From contig NW_021826905.1 of the NCBI RefSeq assembly GCF_006345805.1, positions 1 through 11,862 of the forward strand: DNA of 11,862 nt, read 5' to 3'. Positions 126 through 4,045 of this stretch are shown in pieces. Source of the DNA: Octopus sinensis (lineage: Eukaryota). The translations under genes and the position numbers were made by a program. Below the pieces are notes generated by a model. That model did not search any database. It saw only the letters and a list, made by a program, of their open reading frames with translations, and was not told the DNA's origin. The first letter of the stretch is position 1, and each line of letters opens with the position of its first letter.

Positions 126-673
126 AAACTATGCCAACACTATAGAATGATTACAGAAAAATGGTGGTATAGGATCACCACAGAAAAGGTCTCAGAAAAA
201 GGGGAAAGCAACCCTAACCCTGGGTTATGCCAATATACACAGATAGAGAAATCAAGGCTTATAGACCGGATATTGTTGTCAGGGATCACCCTCCCCGCCA
301 AAAAATGCCTTGGTATTTGATATATCAATACCAACAGATGACAATGTACCTCTAAACGAAACAGAATACAAAGATCTGGAAATAAAGGTGACCCGAATGT
401 GGGGCTTAAAAAGAGAAGCAATTCCTATAATAAATAGTAGGTGCATTAGGTATGATGAAACAAAAACTCAGACAAATATATAACCAAAACACCAGGACTT
501 ACAAATGTATATAACACAGAAAATAGCACTACTAGGCCCCGCGTACATCCTGCGTAAAACACTTTCAATACAATGAAAGCAAGAGCACAAAAACAAACTC
601 CAACACATACCCAATGCACACAGAGCTGCGCCCGGGAGTGCAGTGACAGCATGTGATCAAAATAAGACTACTG
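126..673 (+). mobile_element. Degenerate 5'-truncated R4/Dong-like RLE non-LTR retrotransposon 3' end (lineage A, older copy)
   Basis: Aligns by eye along its length with 3497-4045 (KLCQHY..TEK.WYR; aaatacaaagatctggaaata; gtaggtgcattagg; accaggacttacaaa; 3' end actactg+AAT). Many frameshifts and stops; AAT repeats on both sides. Confidence 0.88.
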
Positions 674-858
674 AATAAAATAATAATAATAATAATACTA
701 ATAATAATAATAATAATAATAATAATAATAATAAGTAATAATAATAAGAATATAATAATAATAATAATAATAATAATAATAATAATAATAATAATAATAA
801 TAATAATAATAATGATAATAATAATAATAATAATAATAATAATGATAATAATAATAAT
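674..858. repeat. (AAT)n microsatellite
   Basis: Directly visible, few interruptions; source of the poly-Ile ORFs. Confidence 0.97.
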
Positions 859-1296
859 ATCTGTCAAGACCTACCAAAAACTGAGCAAATATAAGATCTT
901 GAAATAGAAATCACAAAATGTGGAAGCTGAAGACTAAACAATACCTGTTGTCATAGGTGCCCTGGGAATGATAGCAAAAGGGACTGATTGCTACCTAACT
1001 CAATACCAGGAAACCCCAAAATGGCAGAAATTCAAAAGATAGTGATCATGGGAACTGCTCATATCCTACGCAAAATACTCTCTATGTAATCCCAAGGTTT
1101 AAAACAAACATTTTTCTTTCTTTTTTTTCTTTATTTTTTTTTTTATTTTATTTTTATGTATTAGACATTCACTAGTACAACACCAAAAAAAAAACCCCAA
1201 ATATATGACACAGAACTTCCAACCTGTTGTCTCTTGAGGTCTCTGGGTGAGACTTGGAGCCAACTTGTACAAATATAAAGCAAAAGTCAAACATAG
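859..1296 (+). mobile_element. 5'-truncated R4/Dong-like RLE retrotransposon 3' end (lineage B)
   Basis: Frameshift-corrected translation SVKTYQKLSKYKDLEIEI..MWKLKT..IPVVIGALGMIAKG...IPGNPKMAEIQKIVIMGTAHILRKILSM*, stop 1087-1089, then ~205 nt 3' UTR ending in (AAT)n. Confidence 0.88.
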
Positions 1297-1320
1297 AATA
1301 ATAATAATAATAATAATAAT

Positions 1321-1950
1321 TTACATTGGACAATATGTCGGTATTATAAAATCAAAACTGCTGACAACTGGTATAAACACCAATCTGAAGCTGTGACTGA
1401 GGGAGAAAATGTGTCGATTCTATGGGACTTCTCCGTACAGACCGACAAGACTATAAAAGCTAATAAACCGTATATTATTATAAAAGATCAGACAAAAAAA
1501 GATGTGTTTATTAAATGACATGAGTATCCCTTGCGATCACAATATAGCGGCAAAAGAATTTGACAAGATTAGTAAATATAAAGACCTGCTAATAGAAATT
1601 GAAAAAAATGTGGCATCTCAAGGCGACTACAGTACCAGTGATTGTAGGATCTCTAGGAATGATAAAAAAGGTACTGAAACCTATTTGAAAATGATTCCAG
1701 GCTTACCATCCCTACAGGAAATGCAAAAAATCAAATCAACTAGAACGGCTCATGTACTGAGAAGAGTATTATCGCTGTGAAAACAACATCCATCCATGAA
1801 TTTATTTATTTATTAATTTTTAAATACATATTTTATCTGTGAATTTGTGTGTGTAATCTGGGGGTGTATACAATGAGCTTCTCTGCCCCAGGTGTACGGA
1901 AAACACTCGGCGAGAAACGGAAGAAAATTTGAAGAAAGAAGGAAAAAAAC
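1321..1950 (+). mobile_element. 5'-truncated R4/Dong-like RLE retrotransposon 3' end (lineage C1)
   Basis: LHWTICRYYKIKTADNWYKHQSEAVTEGENVSILWDFSVQTDKTIKANKPYIIIKD.../MSIPCDHNIAAKEFDKISKYKDLLIEIEK/MWHLK...TAHVLRRVLSL*, stop 1778-1780. Frameshifts fall in A-runs; catalytic PD mutated to PY. Flanked by (AAT)n 1297-1320 and 1951-2073. Confidence 0.9.
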
Positions 1951-2073
1951 ATAATAATAATAATAATAATAATAATAATGATAATAATAATAATAATAAT
2001 AATAATAATAATAATAATAATAATAATAATAATAATAATAATAATAATAATGATAATAATAATAATAATAATA
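1951..2073. repeat. (AAT)n microsatellite
   Basis: Directly visible. Confidence 0.97.
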
Positions 2074-2074
2074 A

Positions 2075-2633
2075 ATGCCCTGATGCAGTACCAGGCAGTG
2101 GCTCTCATGGCTTCTGATCTTAACTGATTGGAAGTGTTATCATGTACATTGTTTTGTCTTGGTATAAAAGATGGGCTACAGCAAATATTCTGCTCAATAC
2201 CACAGATTTGCTTGTCAGTTGTTTGACCTTAACCAGTTGAGCATGTCCCTTAGTGGTTGACGATATGTGCATCTCTGATCACGAGCAGAAGTAGTGGGGG
2301 AGCATCATAGCCATGTGTTGAGAGGGATTCTTTGGGGTTTGAATAATTCACCTCTGGAAACATGGGTGGTTCTTTCAACATCCTTAAACAACCCTTATTC
2401 AGTCAGGGACCTTTGCGTGGAGTGGGCTACTCGACATGTAAAAAATTCTAACTGGGCCCCACCTACAAAGTCATGCACTGTTTACTTTGATGTGAGATCA
2501 CTATGTCGAGCACATGTGGTTGTGATGCACGTGTCTGGTGTACCCTTATGAGACGGGTAGTCATGATGGGTATATTGGGCTTCGTATATTTTACCCCAGT
2601 GTCACTTTGATGGCATGCACTGCTCTCTCACTC
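2075..2633 (+). mobile_element. Non-coding ~560 bp insert within the AAT array (non-autonomous element or long 3' UTR of another AAT-targeting retroelement)
   Basis: Complex sequence sharply bounded by (AAT)n on both sides; no RLE/RT-like peptide found; possible 3' hairpin cagtg...cactg near 2597-2622. Strand is inferred from neighbours. Confidence 0.55.
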
Positions 2634-2687
2634 AATAATAATAATAATAATAATAATAATAAGAAGAAGAAGAAGAAGAAGAAGAAG
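2634..2687. repeat. (AAT)9 then (AAG)9 compound microsatellite
   Basis: Directly visible. Confidence 0.95.
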
Positions 2688-2688
2688 A

Positions 2689-3405
2689 ACCACCTAATCT
2701 CTGGATGTAAAGTCTTAGCACCAGTGGAGTATAAATTAAGACATGACAGAGTTGGCCAATATCTACACTGGCTAATAAGTCGGCATTACAATATCAAAAC
2801 TGCCGACAAGTGGTATAATCACCACCCTGAGGCTGTAACTGAAGGAGAAAATGTAACCATTCTGTGGGACTTTCCAGTACATACAGACCGAACCATTAAG
2901 GCCAATAAACCAGATATTGTTGTGAAAGACAAAACAATAAAGTTTGCTTATTGATCGACATGAGCATCCCCTGTGATCATAATATCTCAGCGAAAGAGTT
3001 TGACAAGCTCAGAAAATATAAAGACCTACTCATTGAAATTGAGAAAATGTGGCATCTCAAGGCGGTTACAATACCAGTGATCGTAGGAGCACTAGGAATG
3101 ATCAAGAAGGGAACCGAAAATTATATGAGAATGATCCCTGGCTTACCATCCCTGCAAGAAGTGCAAAAGATTGTCTTAACTGGTACATCACACGTATTGA
3201 GAAGAGCATTGTCGATGTGAGAACCGTTACTGCTCATGTATTTTAATTTAACTTAAAAAATAAAAAATAATTTTTTTTTTTTAAATGAACGAACTATTGA
3301 GTTTGGTTTAATGGCCTACTAATGTATACTATGAGTTTCCTTGGCCTAGGAGTCGGGAAGACAGTCGGCAAGAAATGGAAGCAAATTTGAAAGAAGAAAA
3401 AAAAG
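2689..3405 (+). mobile_element. 5'-truncated R4/Dong-like RLE retrotransposon 3' end (lineage C2), longest fragment
   Basis: HLISGC (H-x4-C end of the CCHC knuckle), RHD motif, ILWDFPVHTDRTIKANKPDIVV, IDMSIP, KLRKYKDL, PVIVGALG, LQEVQKIVLTGTSHVLRRALSM*, stop 3218-3220. One frameshift near 2935-2950. This is the C-terminal RLE domain of R2/R4-group elements. Confidence 0.93.
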
Positions 3406-3465
3406 TAATAATAATAATAATAATAATAATAATAATAATAATAATAATAATAATAATAATAATAA
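3406..3465. repeat. (AAT)n microsatellite
   Basis: Directly visible, pure. Confidence 0.97.
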
Positions 3466-4045
3466 CATGACAGAGTTGGAACCTACATACATTGGAAGCT
3501 ATGCCAACATTATGGAATAACAACAGAAAAAAGATGGTATAGGCACACACCAGAAAAGGTCACAGAAAACGAGAAAGCAACCATACTCTGGGATATGCCG
3601 ATACACACAGATAGAGAAATTAAGGCCAACAGACCAGATATAGTTGTCAGAGATCATGAAGAAAAAAAATGCTTTCTAATTGATGTATCAATACCGGCAG
3701 ATGACAACGTGTCTCTAAAAGAAATGGAGAAACTCTCAAAATACAAAGACCTGGAAATAGAGGTAACCAGAATGTGGGACCTAAAAACAGAAACAATTCC
3801 TATCATAGTAGGTGCATTAGGCATGATAAAAAAATATTCAGACAAATACATAACAAAAACACCAGGACTTACAAACACATATAACATACAGAAAATTGCA
3901 CTACTAGGCACTGCACCATCCTACGCAGAACACTTTCCATACAATAACCATCAGAGCATCACAACAAATCACAGCACATACCCAAGGCACACAGAGCTGC
4001 GCTCGGTAGTGAAATGAAAGCACGCTATAAAAAATAAAACTACTG
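3466..4045 (+). mobile_element. 5'-truncated R4/Dong-like RLE retrotransposon 3' end (lineage A, younger copy)
   Basis: Open frame from 3466: HDRVGTYIHWKLCQHYGITTEKRWYRHTPEKVTENEKATILWDMPIHTDREIKANRPDIVVRD..CFLIDVSIP..KLSKYKDLEIEV..IPIIVGALG..IQKIALLGTA; 1-nt deletion near 3916, then ILRRTLSIQ*, stop 3945-3947; ~100 nt 3' UTR then (AAT)n. Confidence 0.93.

Follow-up and report, generated by a model that had tools for sequence, protein, structure and literature searches.

The stretch of Octopus sinensis DNA analyzed here (NCBI RefSeq assembly GCF_006345805.1, contig NW_021826905.1, positions 1 to 11,862 of the forward strand; the whole 11,862 nt is hereafter called the window) begins with AAT arrays broken up by short inserts (1–4240). 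Five of these inserts encode the C-terminal end of a long interspersed nuclear element (LINE) protein, and the 3' untranslated region (3' UTR) of each carries, shortly before the AAT tail, a hairpin of about 35 nt with a 3x1 internal loop. This hairpin, the elements that bear it, and the role it may play in the selection of their RNA are the subject of the present work. The coordinates are collected in Table 1.

Table 1. Hairpin motifs, LINE fragments and neighbouring features of the window. Genome candidate counts for the LINE families come from a first look.
Feature	Position	Strand	Details
Motif, decayed family A	605..640	+	closing G altered, first inner pair broken; unscored by covariance model 'R2' at E<=10
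Motif B	1228..1262	+	bulge 1235-1237, inner stem 1238-1243/1249-1254, loop 1244-1248, bulge 1255
Motif C1	1881..1915	+	bulge 1888-1890, inner stem 1891-1896/1902-1907, loop 1897-1901, bulge 1908
Motif C2	3339..3373	+	bulge 3346-3348, inner stem 3349-3354/3360-3365, loop 3355-3359, bulge 3366
Motif A	3976..4011	+	bulge 3983-3985, inner stem 3986-3991/3998-4003, 6-nt loop 3992-3997, bulge 4004
Family H LINE 3' end (sixth fragment)	61..118	+	5'-truncated within main hairpin
Family A 3' fragment, decayed	119..673	+	restriction-like endonuclease (RLE) remnant and 3' UTR
AAT array (target and tail)	674..859	+	further arrays 1297-1320, 1951-2074, 2634-2662, 3406-3465, 4046-4240
Family B 3' fragment	860..1296	+	at least 1125 genome candidates
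Family C1 3' fragment	1321..1950	+	at least 2466 genome candidates
SINE-like repeat, non-coding, 559 nt	2075..2633	+	fixed 5' end, AAT tail; at least 5369 genome candidates
SINE-like repeat hairpin	2539..2574	+	3-nt bulge, six pairs interrupted by an extra bulged A, G3 in the 5-nt loop, 13-bp outer stem
Family C2 3' fragment	2690..3405	+	zinc knuckle, RLE, 3' UTR; at least 610 genome candidates
Family A 3' fragment, young	3466..4045	+	at least 825 genome candidates

Read from 5' to 3', the motif has an outer stem whose last base is C, and a YNA bulge of 3 nt leads from it into a 6-bp inner stem with G as its first base. The loop on this stem counts 5 nt, the third of which is G, and a 1-nt bulge and a G come after the stem. 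The original prediction, made from the letters of the window alone, had quoted five hairpin strings, and all of them are present where it placed them; what it took for an ..AGG linker is instead the YNA bulge followed by the G-G that opens the inner stem, with the 1-nt bulge on the 3' side. The distance to the AAT tail, put at about 30–37 nt, was measured as 31–41 nt (A 37, degenerate A 41, B 32, C1 36, C2 31). The claim that every fragment bears the hairpin stands for the five that it covered, but not for a sixth, the family H fragment, which is truncated and lacks it; this fragment retains only a second hairpin (arms 82–85 and 99–102) and matches the 3' end of RLE elements in the host loci L009 and L030. 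The upstream family A copy had been described as degenerate, and it indeed has pair-breaking changes relative to the commonest natural copies. Two such changes relative to the commonest natural genome copies are also found in the C2 copy of the window, which scores 9.7 bits with covariance model 'R2', while motif B scores 28.7 bits (family B is in the training set of this model). The young family A copy has close relatives, as the top 39 other copies are 99% identical to it over 146 nt.

The spacer between motif and tail measures 39–40 nt in five host families and 31–62 nt elsewhere. In most families the motif lies 20–200 nt past the stop codon, and this variable distance indicates that the motif is tied to the tail and not to the stop. 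In two loci the 3-nt bulge of the motif is itself the stop codon of the open reading frame (ORF) (L195:3260-3262, L200:2875-2877), and in L196 and L197 the stop lies inside the inner stem. Some known RNA motifs were considered as candidates and rejected. The family A loop resembles that of the iron-responsive element (IRE), but such a loop is absent from the other families and no bulged C occurs 5 bp beneath it; the histone stem-loop and SECIS misfit in loop and core. Rfam searches (IRE, Histone3, SECIS, ribozymes) gave no relevant match at E<=5 in window positions 1–4400 or at E<=1 in seven loci.

Pfam and PDB searches with the window's own LINE fragments returned nothing useful, and longer copies were therefore taken from the same genome, where 120 loci were mined for the commonest natural copies and for further families. 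The longer copies contain an RVT_1 domain (E 1e-21 to 4e-28), and their best PDB matches are R2 proteins; a host protein aligns to R2Tg across the reverse transcriptase (RT), the CCHC knuckle, and the PD..D..K endonuclease. The predicted structure of a 756-aa natural host ORF piece (mean predicted local distance difference test score, pLDDT, 92.1) matches the R2 structures of target-primed reverse transcription (TPRT) with Z of 35.9–38.9 and a root-mean-square deviation of 3.1–3.5 over 590–610 aligned residues. All eight full-length homologs checked contain CCHC, six of them show the PD..D..K pattern, and none has a C2H2 pattern within its first 500 aa; proteins of the Dong/R4 clade are not known to carry an N-terminal C2H2 zinc finger. 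The copies are 5'-truncated with intact 3' ends, which is a signature of TPRT, and their median lengths are 397–765 nt. AAT repeats were found at the 5' junction of 97 of the 121 truncated copies with both ends in the locus, against a background of 4.5%; as the loci were found with AAT-tailed queries, the 3' junction side is not independent evidence of AAT targeting. Near full-length C2, B and A copies (L124, L134 and L140; about 5.4, 4.9 and 4.1 kb) lie between AAT arrays, and their 5' ends are unrelated.

The fragments of the window are 5'-truncated 3' ends of R2-like LINEs (RT, CCHC, RLE) that sit in AAT arrays, and they fit the Dong/R4 type. The 240 homolog matches listed include no named reference for Dong, R4 or Rex6, so the label rests on the features of the elements, namely AAT targeting, domain make-up, and the lack of C2H2. 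Dong is a member of the RLE-bearing R4 clade, in agreement with the Dong-R4 label. Dong elements target TAA microsatellites and are placed under 'APE-type' (apurinic endonuclease) in one account (PMC3812793), and in octopus genomes the Dong-R4 LINEs form an abundant group with recent activity (PMC13282606, PMC8967140). Named protein homologs come from a shrimp, a killifish, a coral, insects, and a lizard, and viral contigs yielded no relatives. A scan of genome contigs found three LINE fragments without a 3' UTR (L241-L243) in bacterial metagenome-assembled genomes, probably as host contamination. The region of the C2 hairpin is covered by contigs from four presumed RNA runs, but such coverage cannot show transcription or ends.

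The pattern of the motif was fixed from the host families before any comparison outside the genome, and the descriptor was slightly widened after the metagenome UTRs had been seen. Metagenome relatives were the best 80 of 466 loci; 76 of them were examined for a 3' UTR, and the 45 tailed within 300 nt represent 27 families. The strict descriptor matched 16 of the 27 (strictly 15 of 26, because L234 and L182 are one family), whereas 500 shuffles gave 0.28 on average and never more than 3. There were no matches on the reverse strand and none in 132 ORF segments, and the third loop position is G in every one of the 16 matches, although the descriptor did not require it. With an anchor that used the sequence only, 28 sites averaged 4.36 of 6 pairs versus 2.18 when shuffled. 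Covariance model 'R1', trained on the six host families only, was run over 216 kb and gave 34 matches at E<=10, 27 of them with E<0.05, all within 3' UTRs of the elements; four seemingly misplaced matches turned out to be 3' ends of further or deleted copies. Six loci (L220, L224, L226, L228, L230, L237) have a different 3' tail and no motif, while their neighbours in the protein tree, L218 and L238, have it. Two distant relatives (L201, L240) show a possible 3x1 hairpin of other sequence.

The structure is supported by covariation. Twenty-seven gap-free instances of equal length (6 host, 21 metagenome), whose proteins are 31–76% identical (median about 45%), were aligned, and the off-geometry rows of family A, L162 and L171 were left out. 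When these three were included (30 rows), RNAalifold returned the same 10 pairs unprompted. In the 27-row alignment 93.7% of the 270 pair cells are paired, 92 cells are changed on both sides, and the covariation score is 0.889, compared with 0.261 for shuffled and at most 0.138 for slid alignments. Tested on the protein tree against two tree-aware nulls of 300 alignments each, the pairs 5-31, 13-25, 14-24, 15-23 and 16-22 exceeded every null maximum of both nulls; pair 6-30 was borderline (p 0.04–0.06), and 4-32, 12-26, 7-29 and 11-27 were not significant. The six best-scoring column pairs are all proposed pairs. The original prediction had remarked that stem letters differ while pairing is kept and had proposed covariation across families as the check; over 27 lineages the covariation is significant, with five pairs beating the nulls and an RNAalifold structure in agreement. 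We regard the hairpin structure as real, with hardly any doubt.

Against this freely changing background a few positions are near-invariant: C7, A10 and G11 (26 of 27 each) and the loop G19 and G29 (27 of 27 each). G11 is kept although its partner is C in 16 rows and U in 10, which is expected if the G itself is read in a base-specific manner. On the sense strand G-U cells outnumber A-C cells (21 versus 7), and this excess favours the sense strand.

In R2Bm, a 6-bp stem begins with G33, directly after the unpaired A32, and this G is read by Arg307 in the NTE-1 helix with the aid of Arg310 and Arg311; a 43-nt tag suffices for TPRT, and the divergence of R2 3' UTRs hid this core until cryo-electron microscopy (PMC10499050). 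A profile of 48 full-length homologs was aligned to R2Bm from residue 299 onward, and the columns matching Arg307, Arg310 and Arg311 hold R in 48 of 48, K in 40 of 48, and R in 47 of 48 proteins. In the structural alignment the first aligned residue of the model is lysine 100, which belongs to this helix and stands opposite R2Bm 310 or 311. The near-fixed distance to the tail, the G-U bias towards the sense strand, and the retention of the R2 NTE-1 helix point to a role in template recognition, as the original prediction had inferred, and our analysis makes it probable that the hairpin is a cis tag bound by the RT/RLE protein of the element, which would thereby select its own RNA for TPRT. By analogy with R2Bm, the arginines of NTE-1 would recognize the stem-opening G in a major groove widened by the bulge, and the bulged A and the loop G may provide further protein contacts. 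The spacer of 30–60 nt would then bring the 3' AAU repeats as far as the active site, so that pairing with the nicked strand of the target would be possible.

Several observations weigh against this interpretation or against parts of the structure beneath it. Only rows with at least 5 of the 6 inner pairs had been taken into the alignment, a choice that inflates the covariation of the inner stem and leaves pair 5-31 unaffected; the pairs C7-G29 and G11-Y27, being without covariation, are not proven. In a 110-nt context the ensemble probability exceeds 0.5 for the inner stem in 22 of 27 instances and for the outer stem in 16 of 27. Folding relative to shuffled sequence, a yardstick proposed along with the hairpins, gave a divided answer: trimmed B and C1 fold better (z -2.33 and -2.08), and the other three of the five copies, the two of family A and C2, do not (-0.19, -0.09 and +0.14), while whole 3' ends stay near shuffles (z -0.05 to -0.84). 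The motif is missing from three tailed metagenome lineages, L220, L226 and L237, whose tail is different, and eight more families fail the strict descriptor, although most of these look by eye like variants in loop length or bulge letter or with one extra mismatch. On the protein side, the NTE-1 alignment has a moderate posterior (7), and the structural register is off by one residue between two R2Bm chains. Finally, the covariance model found no motif in 19 loci of the SINE-like (short interspersed nuclear element-like) repeat, which is co-targeted and would be expected to need the same tag.

The foremost alternative, which we judge unlikely, is that the RT does not recognize the hairpin, which would instead bind a host factor or act in 3'-end formation, stability, export, or translation of a transcript without poly(A). 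A geometry that stays constant across such divergent proteins could suit a conserved host partner, the elements do end in AAT repeats, and in one subclade (L195, L200) the bulge coincides with the stop codon; these points are opposed by the lack of a matching family in Rfam, by the position of the motif, which is mostly well past the stop and hence tied to the tail, and by the near invariance of the element's own RNA-binding helix. Less probable still is that the hairpin forms only part of the signal, or a structural spacer, with the specificity residing in a second element or in pairing of the AAU repeats with the target. R2 cores comprise two stems and a linker (PMC10499050, PMC12180492), the eel LINE UnaL2 requires a stem-loop plus the terminal repeat (PMC1636434), and in one branch of the protein tree a second short stem, in a pattern defined by eye, lies 13–21 nt downstream of the motif in 10 of 14 families, compared with 0 of 22 others. 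In the families of the other subclade, among them A, B, C1, C2 and D, the first hairpin is nevertheless the only one and is followed by an A-rich spacer, and still these families number hundreds to thousands of candidate copies.

It is highly improbable that the hairpin acts as DNA or on the cDNA strand during integration, or that it is a small ribozyme: covariation alone cannot separate RNA from single-stranded DNA, but the G-U bias, the absence of descriptor matches on the reverse strand, the absence of a ribozyme match in Rfam, and copies unbroken from motif to tail all speak against this reading. Chance hairpins chosen by eye, a reading to which the three shuffle-like window copies might lend some colour, are refuted by the cross-family tests (descriptor, 'R1' scan, 27-row covariation, and tree-aware nulls).

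A tag bound by the element's protein, which remains the preferred reading, can be set beside known systems. The R2Bm core and its 43-nt tag likewise belong to an RLE-type LINE with a small 3' UTR core, where an unpaired A stands directly 5' of the G opening a 6-bp stem (A32, G33-C125, then C126) (PMC10499050), and the helix whose arginines read that G in R2Bm has a homolog kept in Dong/R4-type proteins. In R2, however, some 80 nt lie within P1, and P2 comes after it across a J1/2 linker in which two adenosines are conserved (PMC10499050), whereas in the present motif a 5-nt loop closes the 6-bp stem, which stacks on the outer stem via the 3x1 loop, with G and not A after the 1-nt bulge. The positions equivalent to the J1/2 adenosines hold G in 27 of 27 rows and G/A/C in 16/9/2, and they appear to be paired in the outer stem; as the linker adenosines are absent, the motif is not an R2 tag. 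The proteins differ as well, since those of R2 have N-terminal zinc fingers and target 28S rDNA. In vertebrate A-clade R2s, the 3'-terminal 65 nt are similarly bound by NTE-1 and its neighbours, and compensatory mutations rescue function (PMC12180492); these R2s use a pseudoknot-hinge-stem arrangement (PMC12180492, PMC12503042) with a GAAAAG hinge and binding by zinc finger ZnF3 also, whereas the Dong/R4-type motif shows no sign of a pseudoknot.

The 3' stem-loop of UnaL2 is about 36 nt long, lies near a 3' repeat tail, and requires its hinge and a loop G (GGAUA) (PMC1636434). Stem-loops of stringent-type LINEs have an internal loop or bulge 4–6 bp below a pentaloop and are common to their partner SINEs (PMC5135761, PMC3747384). 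The octopus-type hairpin shares the conserved stem-loop near the 3' end and the asymmetric internal loop 4–6 bp from the apical loop. In contrast, UnaL2 and the other stringent-type elements belong to APE-type clades (L2, R1, L1, RTE, Tad1), nuclear magnetic resonance shows a bulged C and a U-U at the hinge of UnaL2, and its required loop G is the second and not, as here, the third (PMC1636434); the present motif also differs in that a single geometry was traced over a whole RLE clade with stem letters changing freely. Dong and Dong-R4 LINEs are alike in TAA-microsatellite targeting and in their abundance in octopus (PMC3812793, PMC13282606, PMC8967140). Stem-loops of this class are known in other LINE clades, and within the literature searched no 3' RNA structure of Dong/R4 is described, in line with the original suggestion that the motif is possibly not well described; the original Dong, R4 and Rex6 accounts and those of Repbase lie outside that literature and may contain an earlier mention.

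A bolder version of this reading is possible but doubtful. The hairpin would be a clade-wide, portable 35-nt tag that shares its origin with the R2 P1 core, and its interface, in which the NTE-1 arginines meet the bulged A and the G opening the stem, would have been kept since the split of R2 and R4; it would also suffice to bring cargo into AAT arrays. With such a shared tag, the Dong/R4 proteins of distant animals would mobilize one another's RNAs as well as those of an unrelated SINE mimicking the tag. The SINE-like repeat of the window (further copies in L142-L160) bears on this point. Its copies are 5'-truncated and inserted in AAT arrays, and it is probably mobilized by a Dong/R4 protein. 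It shows no tRNA and no Rfam match, and no LINE with the same tail sequence was seen. Its hairpin lies about 65 nt before the AAT tail; a descriptor of it, written post hoc, also matched 13 times in 5000 shuffles of the final 120 nt and 39 times in 2000 shuffles of the entire element (p about 0.003–0.02), and covariance model 'R2' scores the window copy weakly (7.2 bits, E 4.1). As a shared tag this hairpin is suggestive only.

The second hairpin (CCRG.. / ..CYG-WG) occurs at window positions 82–104 and in L183, L187, L188, L190, L195, L200, L208, L222, L009 and L143, and in several families with two hairpins the first overlaps the stop codon. Further downstream, the window holds two tandem repeats. 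A 181-bp unit present in 22 copies with 97% matches (6972–10954) is one that we take to be SINE-derived. A 157-bp repeat of 4.3 copies (5113–5787) gives weak minus-strand matches to the covariance model (13.3 bits), which are probably chance A/U-rich stems.

A microsatellite-targeted system outside rDNA with so small a candidate tag would be of interest for the engineering of TPRT insertion, and annotation can use the covariance model to mark where these elements end on the 3' side and to help in assigning SINEs to their LINE partners. Comparative data alone yielded a candidate of 35 nt in which four bases are near-invariant and for which the proteins keep a matching helix, and its role is therefore testable by a short list of point mutants. 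The way in which RLE LINEs select their own RNA is known for R2 only, and Dong/R4 may become the second clade, abundant and recently active, for which a candidate signal is at hand.

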